64,000 nucleotides of DNA from a bacterium. GTDB lineage: Bacteria; UBA9089; JAHJRX01. Position numbers and translations under genes: made by a program. Where the stretch lies: the NCBI GenBank assembly GCA_018830565.1, contig JAHJRX010000043.1, positions 9,755 to 73,754 on the forward strand. The letters are read 5' to 3'. The notes under the pieces were generated by a model, which saw only the letters and a program-made list of their open reading frames with translations, was not told where the DNA came from and did not search any database. Below are positions 9,647 to 64,000 of the stretch, piece by piece (within the stretch, counting starts at the first letter, position 1; every line of letters starts with the position of its first letter).

Positions 9647-10109
9647 AATTTCAACCCTTAATTTAATGAAGATTTTATAAAATAATTATCCTGACGGAAG
9701 AAAACTTGAAGATTTTTCTGGTTATGCTTAAACAAATCAGGATAGCCATAAGTGCTATAAGATTTAAAAACTTAGAATAACCTTAATGCTTAATAATTCT
9801 TGATTGGCATTTTTAATTTTGGGGTACTTGCGAAGTAGGTCATTTGATTCTTGATTTAATCTTTAGTCTATCGTCTGATCTCGACAATCTTGGGTCTGTT
9901 TAAATTTTCGTAACCCAATCTTTGTTAAGCATAATGGTAAATGTTCAATGATAAACATTCAATGATAAATGTTCAAGTATTAGCTTTCCAGATAGCAGTT
10001 TTATTAGAGATAAGTCCATTAAGGCAAGAAAGGATTTTTGCCAAACAAACTACTCCCTGATTTTGTTAGCTTTAGCTAACGGCTGAATGTTTACGGATAA
10101 TGTTAATAA

Positions 10110-20490: not shown

Positions 20491-20762
20491 AGTCGTGCTA
20501 GACGGGGAGCCAGCGGTGCCCTGTAACCTGCAATCCGCTATAGCAGGGTTTAATTCCTACCCTAAGTTTTATTAACCATTAGATAAGTTTTTAAAAAGTA
20601 GTGTTGATAGCTAAGTCCTTTGCAATTATTTATTACCTAACTCCGCCAGGTCTGGAAAGAAGCAACGGTAAGTAATGGGTAATTGGCAAGAGGGCTGCTT
20701 AGCTGGAGCTAACCATTAAGAACTTACTTTTAGTTAGAAATTAAAGGTAGGTGCACGACTAA
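20491..20762 (+). ncRNA. ffs: signal recognition particle RNA, long (Bacillus-type) form with Alu domain
   Basis: 5' region GUCGUGCUAGACGGGGAGCCAGCGGUGCCCUGUAACCUGCAAUCCGCUAUAGCAGGG closely parallels the B. subtilis scRNA Alu domain. Domain IV motif CCAGGUCUGGAAAGAAGCAAC is present. The 3' end GGUGCACGAC pairs with the 5' end. It sits immediately upstream of dnaX, as in many Firmicutes-like genomes. Confidence 0.8.
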
Positions 20763-40340: not shown

Positions 40341-41225
40341 TTATTGAGAAGATACTGCATATAATCTTAATATCTCCCTTCTCGCCTCACCAATTGTGAG
40401 TGGGATTCTACCAAATGGAATATTATCCTCATGCTTCAATCTATAAATCAACTCTGCCATTTGAGGCAATCTTAGCCTTACATTCTCCATATCCTCCGGT
40501 GCGGTAAATACATCCTCAGGAGTGCCGCCTCTGACAATATGCCCCTTGCTCAAAATATAAAGCCTGTCAAGGAATAAAGGGACAAGGTCAACTGAGTGTG
40601 TCGCCATAACAATGGTAACGCCATTTTCCTTATTTAACCTTGTCAGGAGATTCATCATTTTATATTCACCCATTGGGTCAAGTCCGGCAGTCGGCTCATC
40701 AAGGAGCAATATCTCGTGTCCCATAGATAAAAGTCCGGCAATACATGCCCGTTTCTTTTGCCCAAAACTAAGATTGTGGATTGATTTTCCTGCATAATCG
40801 TCCATCTCAACAGCCTTTAGTGCCTCCTTAACACGGCTGATAACCTCATCTTCCGCAAACCCCATATTTATTGGTCCAAATGCCACATCCTCAAAGACGC
40901 TTGTAGCAAAGAGCTGGTCATCAGGGTTTTGAAAGACAAGCCCGATTTTTTTATATATCTCCTTTGGCGATAGCTTTTTAATGTTAACACCGTCAAGAAG
41001 GATATTTCCCTCAATATCTTTTAACAGTCCGTCTATTGCCTTTAGCAGGGTTGTTTTCCCTGAGCCGTTTGAGCCGAGAATGCCTGTAAACTCTCCCCTT
41101 TTTATCTCAAGGCTTATGTCAGACAAGGCTATTGTCCCATCCGGATATTTGAACGAGTTTATCTGAACAGACAATCTTCTGACTTCTGACTCCTGACTTC
41201 TGTATTCTGATTTCACATCTTCCAT
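40341..41225 (-). CDS. cbiO: energy-coupling factor transporter ATPase (CbiO/NikO-like)
   Basis: Walker A GSNGSGKTT, signature LSFGQKKR and Walker B LLLDEPTAGLD. The N-terminal ~20 aa (KSEYRSQESEVRRL) are encoded by CTGACTT-type heptamer repeats at 41177-41214. Confidence 0.85.
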   Translation of the reverse strand: MEDVKSEYRSQESEVRRLSVQINSFKYPDGTIALSDISLEIKRGEFTGILGSNGSGKTTLLKAIDGLLKDIEGNILLDGVNIKKLSPKEIYKKIGLVFQNPDDQLFATSVFEDVAFGPINMGFAEDEVISRVKEALKAVEMDDYAGKSIHNLSFGQKKRACIAGLLSMGHEILLLDEPTAGLDPMGEYKMMNLLTRLNKENGVTIVMATHSVDLVPLFLDRLYILSKGHIVRGGTPEDVFTAPEDMENVRLRLPQMAELIYRLKHEDNIPFGRIPLTIGEARREILRLYAVSSQ

Positions 41226-41980
41226 ACAACCCCCACAACAATAACGAACAGGACAGAGAATATAACCTCAACAGTTTTGAAGGGTTTGTGCTTGAGTATC
41301 GGTATGTTACCGTCATAACCCCTTTGAATCATGGCTACTGTGATATGGTGGCTATGGTCAAATGCCTTAAGAATGAGAGAGCCTGTAAGGGTGCCGAATG
41401 AACCCAATCCACACTTTATATTGGAGTATCCAAGTCGATTCTTCTGGGCGTTATAAATAACCATTGCATCCTCAAGGAGAACAAAAATATACCTGTAGGC
41501 AAACATCAATATCTCAATAAATCCTTGCGGAACTCTCATCCAGGAAAGTCCTGCTGCAAACTCCACAAACGGCATAGAAAAGCTCATAAAAACAACAATT
41601 GATACCGCACCCAGAATTCTGCTTGCTATCATTAAGCCCTCTATCAATCCATCGCTATGCCCAAAGATTTTTATGCCCATAATATCCAATGAGAATAACA
41701 CATCGCTTCCAGAGAAAAAGAATTTCAACAAGACTATTATTGAGGCGATAAAGACAGGCTCTAAAAATCTCAGGACAAAGACCCTCAAGGGTATCCGTAT
41801 CCTTATGCAGAGAGCAAGACAAAGGATTGTCATGAATATTGGGAGGACAAATCCCTTATAGCTTAGAACCATGGCAAGAATAGCCAGACTGATCATGATC
41901 TTTATCCTTGCATCGATTTTTGAAAGCAGAGAACGGTTACGACCATTCCCTGCGGTAAAGTATTCTGAAAATATTTCCAT
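41213..41980 (-). CDS. cbiQ: energy-coupling factor transporter transmembrane component (CbiQ/EcfT)
   Basis: ~250 aa, five TM helices. Position upstream of cbiO. Confidence 0.8.
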   Translation of the reverse strand: MEIFSEYFTAGNGRNRSLLSKIDARIKIMISLAILAMVLSYKGFVLPIFMTILCLALCIRIRIPLRVFVLRFLEPVFIASIIVLLKFFFSGSDVLFSLDIMGIKIFGHSDGLIEGLMIASRILGAVSIVVFMSFSMPFVEFAAGLSWMRVPQGFIEILMFAYRYIFVLLEDAMVIYNAQKNRLGYSNIKCGLGSFGTLTGSLILKAFDHSHHITVAMIQRGYDGNIPILKHKPFKTVEVIFSVLFVIVVGVVWKM

Positions 41981-42138: not shown

Positions 42139-46228
<4,090 letters not shown>

Positions 46229-46257
<29 letters not shown>

Positions 46258-56118: not shown

Positions 56119-59100
56119 TTATCCTCCCCATTTTGCCTTAATCTCCTGCATCTTAGCCCCCCAGTCAGCCACATCCTCGGCAGTCAGAATATCTATTGAG
56201 CCGCCCTGAAAGTCACCGGTTACATCGCCCATTTTTTCTTCAATCCAGCCCTCAATCTCAAGATATGCGTCCTTGAGTCCGGCTAAGACATCCGGATCAG
56301 CATCCCACAGACCACGCTGGTGGGCTTCCAACAGCCGGCGGCCGATTTCTTCTAATGCCCAGGGGTTATTTTCCTCAAAGAATTTTTTGTTCTCCTCATT
56401 CAGGACAAAGGTGCTGGTAATGTCATCGAATATCCAGTCATCTACCTCTTGAGTAGTTGCCTCCCAGCCATAAACCCTGCCAATGCGTTTGGATATATCA
56501 CCAGCCCCTTTGTAGCCATGTTGTTTCATCCCCTCAATCCATTTTGGATTGAGTAGTTTTGTTCGGACAACTCGTCTGACTTCATCTGCCATATCCCGAA
56601 CCTCAATATGCTCTGGCTCACGGGTATCACCATAGTATGTCCTGACCTCTTTACCGGATAGATGTCTTGCCGCAGCAGTCATCCCTCCATGTGTACCAAA
56701 GTAACCGCAGCAGCCAAACAAATCGTACTCATCGCTGACTACCTTATTGTAAGTTATATCTACACTCTTCAGATTATCAGCCAATTGTTTGTGTTTCTCC
56801 TCCCCAAATATCCCTTTACCGTAGGCATAGCCATTCCAATAAACAAAGACATCGGACAAGTCCTTTTCCTCCTTCCATGCTGAGGCATAGACGGCAAGTT
56901 GCGTTCCTGCCTGATATGTCCCGGGCTTTGAGGCAAAGACGCGAAGGGTGGCATTTCGCCAGGCATCTTTGTTTTCTTCGCTCTCTCCTGCCTCTGCTAT
57001 TTGAGCCAATGAATGCTTCCGCACAAAGTTCATCCGGGCCGGCTCCGGCAGGGAGGCCACGGCCTGAATAGCCTCATCAACAAGCTCCATACAGTTAGGG
57101 AAGTTGTCCCTGGTAATGCCTGAAACACGGATAGTAACATCTATTCGTGGTCTGCCCAATTCCTCAAGTGGAATAATATCAAATCCCTTTACCCTACCGT
57201 TTGGCTGCCAGAGAGGCTTTACCCCCAGGAGGTAAAATATTTGTGCCATGCCCTCGCCATCAGCCCACATAATATCCGAGCACTGCCAATAGATAGCAAC
57301 ATTCTCAGGGATTTTACCTTCTTCCTGCTTATGTTTTTTAATCACTGCATCAGCCAATTTCTGCCCTATCTGCCAGGCTGCCTTTGTTGGAATCCGATGA
57401 GGGTCAAGCGAATAAAAATTCCTGCCTGTTGGCAGAATATCATCCCTTCCGCGGGTAATCAACCCTGATGGACCAGGCAGGATATAGCCGCCGTCAAACC
57501 CATGCAGCAACGACTCAATCTCCTGAGATTCATCAATCCGCTTGTTCAAATCAACCAACCTTTCCTTGATTACCACAAGCGAGTCTATATATTCCACCTT
57601 CTTCAGCCTCTCACCAAGTATATCCTTAGCGAGCCTGTCCATGTCTTTTTCATCGATTGTCATCCTGCGGATAAATTCCCTGCAAAGGGTATTAATTTCC
57701 TCTAATAACTCCCCGTAAGCTTGATGGTGATGCGGACAAACCTTGCCGCTGTCTGCCAGCATATCAGACAGATTCATACCCATCATCCCGGCAACTATCT
57801 TTCGCAGCGAAACCTTTTCACCGGTGTCGTATCGCAAAATGGAGTTGATGAAGTCTAACCGCTTCTCACCTTCCGGCAACTGACCAAAGATATGCATCCC
57901 ATCCTGAATCTGGGTATTTCTGATTTTAGACAGGATACCATGGGTTGCCTGAACTATTTCACCAAAAGGTAATGAATGAACCTCTGAATCACCTAATTCG
58001 GCAAGCGATAATTTTTTAAATTCGCAATTCGCAATTCGCAATTCGCAATTAACTTTTATCTCTTTGTCCAGATTGGTCTTCTGGATGGCATCCATAATCA
58101 GATGCTGCAAGGCATGAGCCCGTCCATGGTCAATGTCCTTCAACTGTTCATACTCCCCCAAGAACCTGCCGAGCTCCTCCAACTCCTCATAAAGCCCGCC
58201 TTGGGTCATCACCGTTTGCATGTGGTCAACCAGGGTGGCATAGCTGCGACGCTTAGCAATGGTGCCCTCCGGGGGGTTATCCGCATTGTAGATGTAAAGG
58301 TGCGGGATGTCGCCAATCCCAATGTCCGGATAGCAATCACCAGACAGGGCAGTGCCTTTGCCGGGCAAGAATTCCAGGTTGCCGTGTGTGCCGACATGGA
58401 CAATCGCATCTACACCAAAATCGTATTCCAGATAACGATAAGTCGCCATATATTGATGTGGTGGAGGAATATCCGGATCATGTAGGATTTTGCAGACCTG
58501 TCCATCGCATCTTGCCCCGGCACAGCCACGCTTTGGCTGAACACAGACAACCGTATTCCCATACGCTACACCTGTAACTAATATTCGTCCATCGTAAACC
58601 ATAGCCGGCGGCACACCATTTACCTCCTCACCCGGTGGATTTCCCCATGCATCACACATCCGCTGCCTGACCATTGGTGAAAGGGTATTAAACCATTCCT
58701 CGTATTCCTCTTTGGTTACCTGCTTCAGCACACCACCCTTTTTGACTATCTCATCCGTAGTTGTCCAGCGAAACTCACTGATTGCCTTGCGGTCCATAAT
58801 CGTGGTGATAAGCTCCTTGCCGTCAGTTGGCGGCTCGACGGCATATCCCGCCTCTTTCATGCGATGCATTATTCGGGCAACACTTTCCAGGGTATCCAGA
58901 TGAGCACCCCCTCCTACCGTGGCTTCTACTGAGGCACAAGGGTTGTTGTTCAGGATAAAAGCCACCTTACGCTCGGCGACTGGCTTTTGTCGAAGCTTTA
59001 CCCAGTTAGCAATCCGGCGGACAACCTTACGGCACCGCTCCTCGATCGGCATCCGCTGTTGCAAGCCGCCCTTTTCATCACTTAAGCCACCAATGATAAA

Positions 59101-60081
59101 AGGCTCAATTACCCCCTCAAACTCAGGCATAGCAATACTCCAACCAACGCTGGTGCCTAATCCATGGGAGTCATTCTGCCACTCATCTATGGTTTTGTAA
59201 TAAGAGGTTATGGGTGAGAACACCGGCACATCAAGCCTTTTTAGTATCTCCACCCCACTGGAAGCAACCTCCTTGTCGTCAAAATCTTTCCCCTGTGTAT
59301 TACCTATGAAGAAATTCTGGAGCTTGATAAGGGCATCAATTCGTGGTGTTCCATCCTCACGCAGGAAATATTCACAAACCACCTCACCGCTCCCCTTGCA
59401 GCCTTGTTCTTCATTCTTGACTGAGTACGAAAATGCCGGGATGACATTCAAACCCAATGCCTCTAATTCACGAATAAGGGCATCTTCAACCTCAAGATTG
59501 TTATTTACCCAGTAGTGGCGGGAAAAAAGGATACCGACAGTAGGAATTTTGGATTGCGAATTGCGAATTGCGGATTTATGAAGATGATACCAATTCAGGT
59601 ATTCCTCAATAGTGCCAAAGATTGATGGGGCATCCGGGTGATACAGCCCTTCCCATGGCACATGTTTTGGCTCTGCCGCCGATAGATCAAGCCCAACAAC
59701 CTCATGGGCAATATATTTCAGCATATTGGTGAAATTTTCCTCACCACCAATTATTATATAGGAATAAGTTTTGGCAGCAACCTCCGGTTTAACGGTAGAA
59801 AGCATCCAGTAGGACGGGTCATATCCAATACAGACAATAGGAATCTTTTTGCCTATCTCCTGTAGCTTTGCCTCAATCGTCTCCCAAAAACCCTCGCTTG
59901 AGCGATAGAGAAGAATGGCATCAGCCTTCGCTGCCTCCTCAAGCACTGCCTCAAGAATATCCGGCTCATCAGCAAGTTTTTTGGCAGAATAAGCCTTAAG
60001 CTCAACTGATTCGGCAACATTTTTGCTTGCCTTGACAAGCATATTTAGATGGCTGTGCCACATAATAGCGACTATTCGCAT
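56119..60081 (-). CDS. cobN: cobaltochelatase CobN-family large subunit, paralog 2 (canonical, no signal peptide)
   Basis: 1320 aa with CobN blocks throughout. Partnered with the ChlI/ChlD gene immediately downstream. Contains two in-frame AATTGCG heptamer insertions (58021-58049 encoding NCELRIANCEF; 59557-59580 encoding SAIRNSQS). Confidence 0.9.
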   Translation of the reverse strand: MRIVAIMWHSHLNMLVKASKNVAESVELKAYSAKKLADEPDILEAVLEEAAKADAILLYRSSEGFWETIEAKLQEIGKKIPIVCIGYDPSYWMLSTVKPEVAAKTYSYIIIGGEENFTNMLKYIAHEVVGLDLSAAEPKHVPWEGLYHPDAPSIFGTIEEYLNWYHLHKSAIRNSQSKIPTVGILFSRHYWVNNNLEVEDALIRELEALGLNVIPAFSYSVKNEEQGCKGSGEVVCEYFLREDGTPRIDALIKLQNFFIGNTQGKDFDDKEVASSGVEILKRLDVPVFSPITSYYKTIDEWQNDSHGLGTSVGWSIAMPEFEGVIEPFIIGGLSDEKGGLQQRMPIEERCRKVVRRIANWVKLRQKPVAERKVAFILNNNPCASVEATVGGGAHLDTLESVARIMHRMKEAGYAVEPPTDGKELITTIMDRKAISEFRWTTTDEIVKKGGVLKQVTKEEYEEWFNTLSPMVRQRMCDAWGNPPGEEVNGVPPAMVYDGRILVTGVAYGNTVVCVQPKRGCAGARCDGQVCKILHDPDIPPPHQYMATYRYLEYDFGVDAIVHVGTHGNLEFLPGKGTALSGDCYPDIGIGDIPHLYIYNADNPPEGTIAKRRSYATLVDHMQTVMTQGGLYEELEELGRFLGEYEQLKDIDHGRAHALQHLIMDAIQKTNLDKEIKVNCELRIANCEFKKLSLAELGDSEVHSLPFGEIVQATHGILSKIRNTQIQDGMHIFGQLPEGEKRLDFINSILRYDTGEKVSLRKIVAGMMGMNLSDMLADSGKVCPHHHQAYGELLEEINTLCREFIRRMTIDEKDMDRLAKDILGERLKKVEYIDSLVVIKERLVDLNKRIDESQEIESLLHGFDGGYILPGPSGLITRGRDDILPTGRNFYSLDPHRIPTKAAWQIGQKLADAVIKKHKQEEGKIPENVAIYWQCSDIMWADGEGMAQIFYLLGVKPLWQPNGRVKGFDIIPLEELGRPRIDVTIRVSGITRDNFPNCMELVDEAIQAVASLPEPARMNFVRKHSLAQIAEAGESEENKDAWRNATLRVFASKPGTYQAGTQLAVYASAWKEEKDLSDVFVYWNGYAYGKGIFGEEKHKQLADNLKSVDITYNKVVSDEYDLFGCCGYFGTHGGMTAAARHLSGKEVRTYYGDTREPEHIEVRDMADEVRRVVRTKLLNPKWIEGMKQHGYKGAGDISKRIGRVYGWEATTQEVDDWIFDDITSTFVLNEENKKFFEENNPWALEEIGRRLLEAHQRGLWDADPDVLAGLKDAYLEIEGWIEEKMGDVTGDFQGGSIDILTAEDVADWGAKMQEIKAKWGG

Positions 60082-62524: not shown

Positions 62525-62553
62525 ATTATAGCACAAGATGTGAATTGTGTCAA
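62525..62553 (-). promoter_or_regulatory. canonical sigma70 promoter (TTGACA-17 bp-TATAAT) for the TonB-dependent receptor gene
   Basis: Minus-strand ttgacacaattcacatcttgtgctataat, then ~30 nt, AAGGAGG and ATG. Confidence 0.7.
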
Positions 62554-62565
62554 GTAAAATTTCGA

Positions 62566-62595
62566 GTAAGGGCAACCGCAGGGGGTTGTCCTTAC
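62566..62595 (-). terminator. hairpin downstream of cbiMN
   Basis: gtaagggcaacc-gcaggg-ggttgtccttac, one mismatch. A U-rich tract on the minus strand is weak. Confidence 0.4.
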
Positions 62596-62612
62596 AATTC
62601 ACGGAGGGATTG

Positions 62613-63755
62613 TTACAGATGCTCCTTTCCGGCTTTATTTGGTTTTTCAGCAATAAGTATCCTCCAGCAGTATCCACCAATAAATCCTCCAACCGTACCT
62701 GCAAGGAGAAAGACAAAAAGGAGCAGGTCGCCTTGATCGGTATTAATAATTGGCTGCCTTGCCTCTCTGCCATGCTCTGCGGCGTATTTTTCAACAACCG
62801 ATTCATCAACCCCGCTCCATTTAGATTCTTTTGCAAATGCAGGGGTAGAAAATAACAAGGACAGAAGGGTTAAGAGGATTAACAAGGGTGTGGTTATGTT
62901 CTGACTTCTGTATTCTGTCTTCTGTCTTCCATCTTCTGTCTTCTGACTTCTGTCTCCTATATTCTGACTCCTATATTCTGACTTCTGAATTCTGACTTCC
63001 ATTTTCACTACCCCCAATTTCATAAGCATATCCGGCCTCTTTTTGTAAAGCAGCACAATCATGCCTGCTGTCATAGCCCCCTCAAGGATTCCCAATGGAA
63101 GCTGTGTTGGGATGAAGGCAATGAGTATCTTCCAGAAAAGCGGTAAGAATGGTGAATCCCCCCTTATGCCTGAGGCAAGTTCAATGGATGTAGTGGTATA
63201 TGTTGCCCAATCTGCAAGCAGTCCTGCCGCAAAGCCTGCAATCCAGAGGTTAGCCTTTAACGCCCTCAATCCCTTGAAGGTTAAATATCCTGCAAATGAG
63301 CCCATCACACCCATGGAGACAATATCCGCACCCCAGGTACTCAAACCACCGTGAGCAAGGAAGAGGGCTTGAATAAGAAGAGCCGCGGCTGAGACAAGTA
63401 TGCTGACATAAGGGCCAAGTAATATCCCTGATATGCCTGTCCCGCACGGATGGGAACATGTGCCTGCAGTCGGTACTGGTATGGGCATACAAGAGATAAT
63501 GAAAACCACTGCGGCCATTAATCCTATGAGTGGCTTGAACGATAGGTCAACACTTGAGAGTTTCTTCACCTTGTACAACCCAAATGCCACAAATGGCATG
63601 GCAATAGCAAGCCAGAAAACTGCCCAATTGAGCGGCAGTATCCCCTCTGAGATGTGCATGGCATGGGCATTGTTCCTAATCAATAAAAACCCAATGGTTA
63701 AGAGCAATCCTGCAAACAATCTGTCTCTCATCTTAATGTTTCGTTTATTTTGCAT
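62613..63755 (-). CDS. cbiMN: CbiM-CbiN fusion (ECF-type Co/Ni uptake substrate component); MHISEG follows a predicted signal peptide
   Basis: CbiM core (AHA|MHISEGILP..., ~220 aa, seven TM helices). A 35-aa low-complexity linker (EYRSQNIGDRSQKTEDGRQKTEYRSQNI) is encoded entirely by CTGACTT/CTGTCTT heptamer repeats. A C-terminal CbiN-like two-TM module follows. Confidence 0.8.
   Translation of the reverse strand: MQNKRNIKMRDRLFAGLLLTIGFLLIRNNAHAMHISEGILPLNWAVFWLAIAMPFVAFGLYKVKKLSSVDLSFKPLIGLMAAVVFIISCMPIPVPTAGTCSHPCGTGISGILLGPYVSILVSAAALLIQALFLAHGGLSTWGADIVSMGVMGSFAGYLTFKGLRALKANLWIAGFAAGLLADWATYTTTSIELASGIRGDSPFLPLFWKILIAFIPTQLPLGILEGAMTAGMIVLLYKKRPDMLMKLGVVKMEVRIQKSEYRSQNIGDRSQKTEDGRQKTEYRSQNITTPLLILLTLLSLLFSTPAFAKESKWSGVDESVVEKYAAEHGREARQPIINTDQGDLLLFVFLLAGTVGGFIGGYCWRILIAEKPNKAGKEHL
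62899..63000. repeat. heptamer tandem array inside the cbiMN ORF (encodes the inter-domain linker)
   Basis: ttctgacttctgtattctgtcttctgtcttccatcttctgtcttctgacttctgtctcctatattctgactcc... Confidence 0.75.
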
Positions 63756-63869: not shown

Positions 63870-63914
63870 CCTCAAAAACAAAAAACCCAACCTTCACTAA
63901 GAAGATTGGGTTTT
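63870..63914 (-). terminator. rho-independent terminator for the gene upstream of cbiMN (beyond the window end)
   Basis: aaaacccaa / ttgggtttt 9-bp stem with a 15-nt loop, followed on the minus strand by TTTGTTTTTG. Confidence 0.55.
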
Positions 63915-64000
63915 ATTTCCCTTTCATTTCCTTCCCGCGAAGATATAAGATTAGGTAATCGACCGGACTTGTCACTAACTAAGTGATATTACCGTTGCGG

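Follow-up and report, generated by a model that had tools for sequence, protein, structure and literature searches.

The canonical systems related to the gene considered here are the CbiMNQO transporters of Salmonella and Rhodobacter, in which CbiM and CbiN are separate proteins (TIGR00123 and TIGR01165). CbiN has two helices and an extracytoplasmic loop that lies over the metal site of CbiM, and CbiM together with CbiN forms the minimal transport unit (PMC7689651). Roles have been described for the N-terminus and for His67 of NikM, and the natural Nik(MN) fusion of Rhodobacter capsulatus is active (PMC3945884). Fused cbiM-N genes of Geobacter lie in B12-regulated cbi clusters, and the system has been called CbiMNQO (PMC545781). 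We have analysed a fused gene of this kind, cbi(MN), in a stretch of 64,000 nucleotides (nt) from a bacterium of the UBA9089 lineage (GenBank assembly GCA_018830565.1, contig JAHJRX010000043.1, positions 9,755 to 73,754 of the forward strand), and this whole stretch is called the window hereafter. We believe that cbi(MN) is probably an ordinary member of the known class, controlled by a B12 riboswitch and predicted to be functional, and that its unusual part is the tether between the two modules, which is encoded by a heptanucleotide repeat array.

The natural fusions, namely R. capsulatus Nik(MN)QO and Geobacter cbiM-N, resemble the window gene in joining an M module with a processed Met-His N-terminus to a two-helix N module, in having Q (T component) and O (ATPase) partners, and in their B12 riboswitch context. 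The fused protein of G. sulfurreducens (P0055) carries a homologous C-terminal module and is 62% identical overall to the window protein. However, the window linker is 14-33 amino acids (aa) longer than those of the fused relatives compared and is encoded by a heptanucleotide array, the nearest relatives of the window gene are mostly split, and cbiQ and cbiO lie 20 kb away rather than adjacent. The canonical split pair has the same design and, by prediction, the same roles as the window protein, although the N module of the window is too divergent for the curated models of canonical CbiN. Whereas the split relatives show translational coupling, with a Shine-Dalgarno (SD) sequence in the tail codons of cbiM and an ATGA overlap, the window gene is a single open reading frame (ORF). 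Its parts are as follows.

62613-63755, minus strand: cbi(MN) fusion ORF, 380 aa
63660-63755, minus strand: signal-peptide-like leader, aa 1-32, with an AHA end before M33-H34, as read from the sequence
63003-63659, minus strand: CbiM module, aa 33-251, MHISEG...GVVK, matched by PF01891 and NF006184
62898-63002, minus strand: linker, aa 252-286, MEVRIQKSEYRSQNIGDRSQKTEDGRQKTEYRSQN, made of an in-frame ATG (M252) and 14 degenerate heptamer units
62616-62897, minus strand: CbiN-like module, aa 287-380, with the motifs KWxGVDExVVEK...INTDQGD and AlphaFold2 helices at 288-301 and 339-368

The fused feature is real and not an assembly artefact. M and N occupy one uninterrupted frame of 380 aa, and they do so reproducibly: 2018 nt, array included, are 100% identical in an independent Logan assembly (L004), and NCBI and JGI proteins from other samples (P0121-P0123) are 97-100% identical and have the same architecture. 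NCBI annotations take an alternative start for the gene at M9 (63731). The CbiM domain PF01891 spans aa 34-243 (E 5.9e-52, 176.9 bits against a cut-off of 23.1), and the ORF matches NF006184 of NCBIfam with 255.7 bits against a cut-off of 180; its TIGR00123 score is slightly under the cut-off for that model (173.4 against 184.15). The border between leader and mature protein reads ...NNAHA and then MHISEG, and an alignment of 24 homologues shows no variation at A32, M33, H34, I35, E37, G38 or H102. The Met-His-x-x-x-Gly N-terminus after a leader and the conserved internal histidine (H102) that characterize CbiM are therefore both present. By analogy with published work on CbiM and NikM, the leader would be cleaved after AHA, and Met33-His34 would become the metal-binding N-terminus.

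The linker DNA is an array from end to end except for its first codon, M252 standing directly ahead of the repeats that code for aa 253-286. Its units on the coding strand are of the GAAGTCA, GAAGACA and GAATATA type (the CTGACTT family on the plus strand) and run GAAGTCA GAATTCA GAAGTCA GAATATA GGAGTCA GAATATA GGAGACA GAAGTCA GAAGACA GAAGATG GAAGACA GAAGACA GAATACA GAAGTCA. With Tandem Repeats Finder, the region 62899-62999 scores 90 as a period-7 array of 14.4 copies and 108 at period 21. Self-identity of the array is 0.72 at lag 7 and 0.82 at lag 14, with 0.17-0.33 at the remaining lags; none of 20,000 shuffles reached 0.72, the shuffle maximum being 0.53. The longest perfect tract is 17 nt, or about 2.4 units, and near-identical variants from other samples (a sample of four sequences) differ by substitutions within an array of the same length. 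The encoded peptide contains eight lysine or arginine residues, six aspartate or glutamate residues and four hydrophobic residues, and AlphaFold assigns residues 257-286 a predicted local distance difference test score (pLDDT) below 50. Given the topology of the published architecture, such a composition would suit a cytoplasmic tether from the CbiM C-terminus to the first CbiN helix.

The first-pass annotation of this DNA, which was made without database searches, had described an in-frame CbiM-CbiN fusion, a signal peptide retained ahead of MHISEG, and a hydrophilic linker of 35 aa encoded wholly by a CTGACTT-family array. These descriptions stand, as the single ORF with PF01891, the invariant residues around AHA and MHISEG and the lag-7 statistics indicate, with the refinements that the CbiN-like module is divergent and that a methionine codon precedes the array.

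We treat the C-terminal module as a putative divergent CbiN, an assignment that draws on conserved motifs, sub-threshold matches to CbiN profiles, the structure model and gene order. AlphaFold predicts two long helices, at 288-301 and 339-368, with a short loop helix at 318-327 between them. In the split relatives, a homologous gene of about 100-130 aa sits between cbiM and cbiQ, as expected for a small CbiN protein of two helices and a loop. Fused and split relatives alike conserve KWxGVDExVVEKxAxEHGR...INTDQGDLLLFVFLLAG.VGGF..GY.WR in this module. Among 14 family members, 11 match NF002780, the equivalog model for CbiN, with a best E-value of 6.6e-5, and nine match TIGR01165; the matches are nearly full length and all of them lie below the cut-offs. 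Sequence profiles from the PDB gave nothing above noise with the C-terminal module, and of the profile searches that of the whole family with NCBIfam alone was informative.

The origin of the fusion can be judged from 75 classifiable loci, of which 53 are split and 22 are fused, so that the occurrence of fusions besides separate genes, as the first-pass annotation had it, is borne out. The split loci come mainly from metagenome-assembled genomes (MAGs) of Nitrospirota and Thermodesulfovibrionales and make up the majority of the close relatives of the window. Their cbiM genes end in ...V[LI]KPEEVAI and a stop, where the 'PEE' codons form the SD sequence of cbiN (GAGGAGG) and stop and start overlap as ATATGA. 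Fused genes occur in Syntrophales, Geobacter, Planctomycetes and Omnitrophota, in the clade of the window itself (the window, L001, L009, L005 and L089), and as the singletons L006, L011 and L088.

Two sets of observations separate the fusion from the repeats. Fused genes exist without arrays: no period-7 array was found in 11 kb around the G. sulfurreducens gene (L007), whose linker is GGPGAGPRRATVVM, or in the Syntrophales fused loci. Within the clade of the window, the L005 junction passes from GVVKK directly to NITILLLTLL and is array-free, while the window reads GVVKM, 34 further residues and then NITTPLLILLTLL. Comparison with L005 thus reveals a 99-nt in-frame block in the window at an otherwise homologous junction. 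Conversely, arrays are common at the same spot without fusion, since a strong lag-7 array occupies the junction segment in 34 of the 53 split relatives (in 0-3 at any other lag). These arrays begin immediately 3' of the cbiN start codon and in many cases encode the N-terminus of the separate CbiN, for example MKIQSSKFKIK from AAAGTTC units and then the first helix, LFTVHCSLFTV, from ACTGTTC units. Other split CbiN proteins start with peptides of the window family, such as MRSQKSEVRSQ and MRKKKSEVRIQ, and units of the window-linker family in such N-termini include MRSQKSEVRSQNTEH, MRRQMTEVRSQKNQYRIQ and MRKKKSEVRIQNPGE; the window sequence starts M252-EVRIQKSEYRSQN. Because the arrays of split relatives begin directly after the cbiN start, and some are of the same unit family, the window linker most plausibly represents the N-terminal, cytoplasmic part of CbiN, a region often encoded by arrays in this lineage.

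It had been proposed in the first-pass annotation that a repeat element inserted or expanded over the cbiM stop and cbiN start and thereby made the fusion. This proposal is not supported as it stands, given the array-free fusions of G. sulfurreducens, Syntrophales and L005, which are just the kind of fused relative named beforehand as speaking against it, and the 34 split relatives that carry the array. In the comparison with split pairs, no remnant of a stop or start is left in the window, and the linker matches a region of CbiN that is often array-encoded while the genes are still split. Moreover, slippage of a tandem array cannot alone remove a flanking stop codon, and this weighs against a fusion made by the repeat.

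Fusion by a small deletion is illustrated by L088 (P0010; L088 3700-3800), which represents an independent fusion. The junction of the split relative L002 consists of AAACCAGAG, GAGGTAGCTATATG and AAAATTCAAAGTTC in succession; by comparison, about 14 nt comprising the SD remnant, the stop and the ATG are gone from L088 at the edge of an AAAGTTC array, and the frame runs from the cbiM tail into the array as KPEKK-VQNSKFKFQ. From a split ancestor, a comparable deletion of about 17 nt could have produced the GTG AAA ATG GAA GTC AGA of the window. The cbiM/cbiN boundary is evolutionarily labile in this lineage, because most close relatives are split and L088 became fused by a small deletion. The window clade has either kept an old fusion or been re-fused, and on neither account were the genes joined by the insertion of an array, since array-free fusions exist and arrays at the same spot are common without fusion.

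We therefore consider it reasonably probable, if well short of certain, that cbi(MN) is a Cbi(MN) fusion with an array-filled tether, that the fusion depends on the absence of a segment holding the cbiM tail, SD sequence, stop and start, and that the gene was brought to its present host on a transferred island. In such a protein, the 32-aa leader would be cleaved after AHA to leave Met33-His34 as the metal-binding N-terminus, and the CbiM C-terminus would lie in the cytoplasm, as work on CbiM, NikM and CbiN leads us to expect. There, the charged and probably disordered linker of 35 aa would tether a CbiN-like hairpin of two helices and an outward loop, and this loop would cap the metal site of CbiM. 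The array would be a tolerated filler in a tether that is insensitive to length. A stop-free heptamer unit yields the same seven-residue repeat in any frame, and the frame downstream is kept solely by multiples of three units. The fusion itself would rest on the absence of the short tail, SD, stop and start segment and not on the array, whether that absence is ancestral or the result of a small deletion as in L088.

A number of observations weigh against this reading. The C-terminal module gave no match to the Pfam CbiN family (PF02553) even at E <= 10, the window module scores 16.1 bits with NF002780 against a cut-off of 84, and the curated CbiN profiles (TIGR01165, NF002780 and PF02553) do not admit it; because there is no Pfam match and the NCBIfam matches are sub-threshold, 'CbiN' is to be read throughout as 'divergent CbiN-like'. 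The structure model is of modest quality (mean pLDDT 67). Leader cleavage, topology and transport activity are all predictions by analogy. With cbiQ and cbiO 20 kb off, behind an apparent separate promoter, co-expression with cbi(MN) is not guaranteed. An array or its remnants are present at the junction in most of the fused clade of the window (the window, L001 and L089, and weakly L009), so that L005 may have lost its array secondarily and the array may have had a facilitating role. A neighbour-joining tree with BLOSUM distances nests the window clade among split genes, and a concatenated tree with Fitch parsimony places the clade near the base, with a sister group in the split state in 77% of replicates. 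Bootstraps with Kimura distances support the grouping of the window clade with a subset of split genes at 73-81%. The 'GVVK' tail is common to the window clade and to distant fused genes.

On these grounds, it is worth asking whether the array was an agent of the fusion after all. Instability of an array at the boundary, through unequal exchange or an adjacent deletion, might have joined the genes, with the stop-free array absorbing the difference in frame, since one unit shifts the frame by one. The position of the window clade among split relatives in most trees would fit, as would the scatter of the fused singletons L006, L011 and L088 among split genes, which implies repeated transitions. 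At the level of the junction, arrays lie exactly at the boundary in the window, L001 and L089 (in L089 as (GTCAGGA)x4, a perfect array at the GVVK junction that it shares with the window), the segment missing from L088 ends at the first unit of its array, and the ATG for M252 stands right before the array as a former cbiN start would. Yet L006 and L011, like G. sulfurreducens, Syntrophales and L005, are fused without an array, and the 34 array-bearing split relatives have stayed split. Slippage changes copy number and deletes no flanking unique sequence, the direction of change between split and fused differs from tree to tree, and the GVVK tail shared with distant fused genes suggests that the fusion was retained. 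We regard a repeat-driven fusion as unlikely, though it deserves some weight. Less likely still is that the ORF yields two proteins, with an internal start at M252 producing a free CbiN of 129 aa with an array-encoded N-terminus, besides the fusion or in its place. An internal start for the CbiN part had been raised in the first-pass annotation, and there is indeed an in-frame ATG at 63002-63000 preceded by GGGGG with an 8-nt spacer; the product would begin MEVRIQKSEYRSQ, which resembles the split CbiN starts MRKKKSEVRIQ and MRSQKSEVRSQ, and P0004 likewise has Met at position 252. The GGGGG is a weak SD sequence, however, when set against the GAGGAGG of split relatives, position 252 is occupied by E, K, N or S in other members of the clade, and the start is read from the sequence alone.

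That slippage in the array switches the CbiN half, and hence cobalt uptake, on and off has very little probability. Other bacteria do use heptanucleotide tracts, within genes or promoters, for phase variation (PMC2651432 and PMC8262952), and simulated changes of one or two units in either direction truncate the window protein at aa 284-313, ahead of the CbiN module, while changes of three units stay in frame. Heptanucleotide tracts of simple sequence repeat (SSR) contingency loci, as in Haemophilus influenzae (PMC2651432), share with the window a non-triplet repeat inside a reading frame. The window tract is short and imperfect by comparison, with heterogeneous units, and it has no host-interaction context; the long perfect tract and copy-number polymorphism of such loci are both missing from the four sequences compared. 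Array-like linkers also vary between species and yet stay in frame, and two independent assemblies agree on the array. We rejected phase variation on the quality of the tract and on the lack of length variants. Finally, a frameshift error of sequencing or assembly within the repeat could falsely join two genes, given that repeats are error-prone and the contig is metagenomic, but the chance of this is negligible in view of the identical sequence in the independent assembly, the shared architecture of NCBI and JGI proteins from other samples and of several clade members with different linkers, and the absence of any stop or start remnant from the window sequence.

Returning to the fusion with an array-filled tether, its regulatory signals and partner genes are the following.

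63925-64000, minus strand: 3' part of an adenosylcobalamin (AdoCbl) riboswitch aptamer, whose full extent, about 63925-64057, crosses the window end
63872-63914, minus strand: terminator-like hairpin of 14 pairs with the T-tract TTGTTTTTGA, from a consensus scan, between the aptamer and the start codon
62568-62597, minus strand: stable hairpin just 3' of the stop codon, with no clear T-tract
62525-62553, minus strand: sigma-70 consensus match TTGACA-17-TATAAT with an upstream TG (extended -10), 12 of 12 positions, a consensus match only
41213-41980, minus strand: cbiQ, T component, PF02361, E 1.2e-36
40341-41225, minus strand: cbiO, ATPase, PF00005, E 8.9e-33

A scan of the whole window with Rfam gave no aptamer match, because the aptamer is cut by the window end. 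On a longer copy of the contig (L003, where the window position equals 73756 minus the L003 position), RF01482 matches 9699-9831 with 55.3 bits, where the gathering score is 50 (E 2.9e-9). Judging by its position, the terminator-like hairpin is likely to be the expression platform of the riboswitch. The region around the hairpin after the stop codon (62530-62615) folds with a minimum free energy of -19.8 kcal/mol (z = -3.8). The sigma-70 match falls in the gap that separates the cbi(MN) stop from the start of a TonB-dependent receptor gene, and this perfect consensus ahead of the receptor gene suggests that cbi(MN) may be its own transcription unit.

In the relatives, cbiQ and cbiO immediately follow cbiM(N). 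In the window, both components of the energy-coupling factor (ECF) module are present on the same strand but non-adjacent, 20 kb downstream. The intervening block of about 20 kb (42139-62489, minus strand) encodes the TonB-dependent receptor, two CobN proteins, a ChlI/D-type chelatase subunit and a periplasmic binding protein (Peripla_BP_2), along with NYN, ABC-2, FecCD, ABC ATPase, TonB, DUF2162 and ExbB genes. Corrin methylases, CbiG and CobA come after cbiQ and cbiO, so that the riboswitch, the CobN genes and these biosynthetic genes together provide a B12- and cobalt-related context. In L001, the closest fused relative, an AAA_15/AAA_21 ATPase gene and a DUF4276 gene lie between cbi(MN) and cbiQ (L001 7144-8891).

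Several of these neighbours also contain heptamer arrays. An array at 41174-41209 (minus strand), belonging like the cbi(MN) linker to the GTCAGAA/GTCAGGA family, codes for the N-terminus of CbiO, MEDVK-SEYRSQESEVRRL. The first CobN (1320 aa) has two internal in-frame arrays, at 58013-58058 and 59544-59581 (minus strand), one of which is a perfect AATTGCG array of 4.6 copies encoding NCELRIANCEF. The second CobN-like ORF (42139-46257, 1372 aa) has a signal-peptide-like N-terminus made from two arrays at 46115-46257 (minus strand), with a hydrophilic stretch from (GTCAGGA)n, a hydrophobic core from (GGATTCT)n and then AHA followed by Q; a third array, at 42351-42430, is near its C-terminus.

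Heptamer arrays are a general feature of this DNA. The window contains 10 strong arrays at lag 7 and 0-2 at every other lag except 14, its double, and seven of the 10 are inside ORFs of at least 150 aa. Strong lag-7 arrays number 207 across 408 kb of split-type loci from related MAGs, mainly Nitrospirota; this density of 5.1 per 10 kb is about 30-fold that of each other period (about 0.16 per 10 kb). Such arrays are routinely read as coding sequence, giving signal-peptide-like leaders, the starts of membrane anchors, and linkers. On one Thermodesulfovibrionales MAG contig (L002 1-12756), nearly all of about 20 period-7 arrays are inside called genes, including those for CobD, an aminotransferase, CbiA, CbiX/CbiC and CbiD. 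The cbiM leader region has a strong array in 22 of the 53 split relatives, with LFTVHCSLFT or LFTIHYSLFT as a typical hydrophobic core. A count over stop-to-stop ORFs of at least 100 codons is uninformative, as these hold 94% of the arrays and cover 96% of the sequence.

Although the evidence allows only a tentative statement, heptanucleotide arrays might be a systematic source of new coding sequence in Thermodesulfovibrionales-type genomes. They would be readable wherever they land, because the seven-residue repeat encoded by a stop-free heptamer is the same in each frame, and would supply linkers, charged N-termini (MKIQSSKFK, MRSQKSEVR) and the hydrophobic cores of signal peptides or membrane segments (LFTVHCSLFT). 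At the borders of translationally coupled genes they might act as frame adaptors that ease fusion and fission, with cbiM/cbiN and its several independent transitions as the worked example, and they would travel with horizontally transferred islands. In the searchable literature we found nothing on heptamer arrays in Nitrospirota or Thermodesulfovibrio, and no description of heptamer arrays that are routinely translated as leaders and linkers, which is not proof of novelty.

Heptamer families have been published for other bacteria, namely the cyanobacterial STRR sequences, GGGAATC/GGGGAYT in Xanthomonas and Nostoc (PMC4692102), and TAACTGA in Beggiatoaceae, Cyanobacteria and Bacteroidetes (PMC4679880). 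The arrays described here share with the published families (PMC4692102, PMC4679880) a genome-wide excess of few-copy period-7 arrays, often near start codons. However, the STRR, GGGAATC/GGGGAYT and TAACTGA families are mostly intergenic and scarce in coding regions, and one or a few units dominate, whereas here many units occur (GTCAGAA, GTCAGGA, ACTGTTC, AAAGTTC, AATTGCG and others) and they are read in frame within genes, as signal-peptide-like leaders, linkers and insertions. No tandem doublet of the STRR, GGGAATC/GGGGAYT or TAACTGA units was found on either strand of the window, and neither the unit nor the intergenic location of the published families is shared. In two high-GC Geobacteraceae MAGs (L048 and L032) the fused linkers are also period-7, for example KREQGTGNRERGTGNGGQG. 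Nitrospirota-type DNA is therefore not the only place where heptamer linkers are read in frame.

For the transporter, the comparison indicates that the M-N tether tolerates large changes of length and sequence, which should be of use for engineering Cbi(MN) and Nik(MN) fusions. The fused architecture is widespread without repeats and the fusion class is already known, and we consider the lineage-wide occurrence of in-frame heptamer arrays a more noteworthy lead than the fused gene itself. If general, it would offer a testable route by which non-triplet microsatellites become targeting sequences and gene fusions, a compositional marker for DNA transferred horizontally from these lineages, and a warning for gene callers and signal-peptide predictors applied to these genomes.

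The wider composition of the window bears on the history of the locus. Over roughly the first 32 kb the GC content is 30-34%, and from about 36 kb up to the window end it is 42-48%; beyond the riboswitch, in an outer flank covered by L003 1-9300, it drops to 31-35%. The high-GC block of about 31 kb (about 33500-64000) holds the B12 and cobalt genes and all 10 of the strong period-7 arrays, and both low-GC flanks have almost no such arrays. The CbiM core is 77-88% identical to split Nitrospirota-type sequences. TrmE, a housekeeping protein encoded in the flank, is at most about 55% identical to any taxon-named protein, and its named matches belong to mixed phyla. Because contigs of about 101 kb with cbi(MN) come from at least two sources of data, a chimeric assembly is less likely. 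From this pattern of composition, the cobalt/B12 block is probably a horizontally acquired island in a low-GC host, derived from a heptamer-rich donor resembling Nitrospirota. The idea that the island arrays are a decaying fossil, more degenerate than arrays of the donor type, was rejected, as the lengths of perfect tracts are alike (Mann-Whitney p = 0.6). The low-GC host part also encodes a bacterial large signal recognition particle RNA (20493-20758, plus strand), which matches RF01854 with 161.6 bits.

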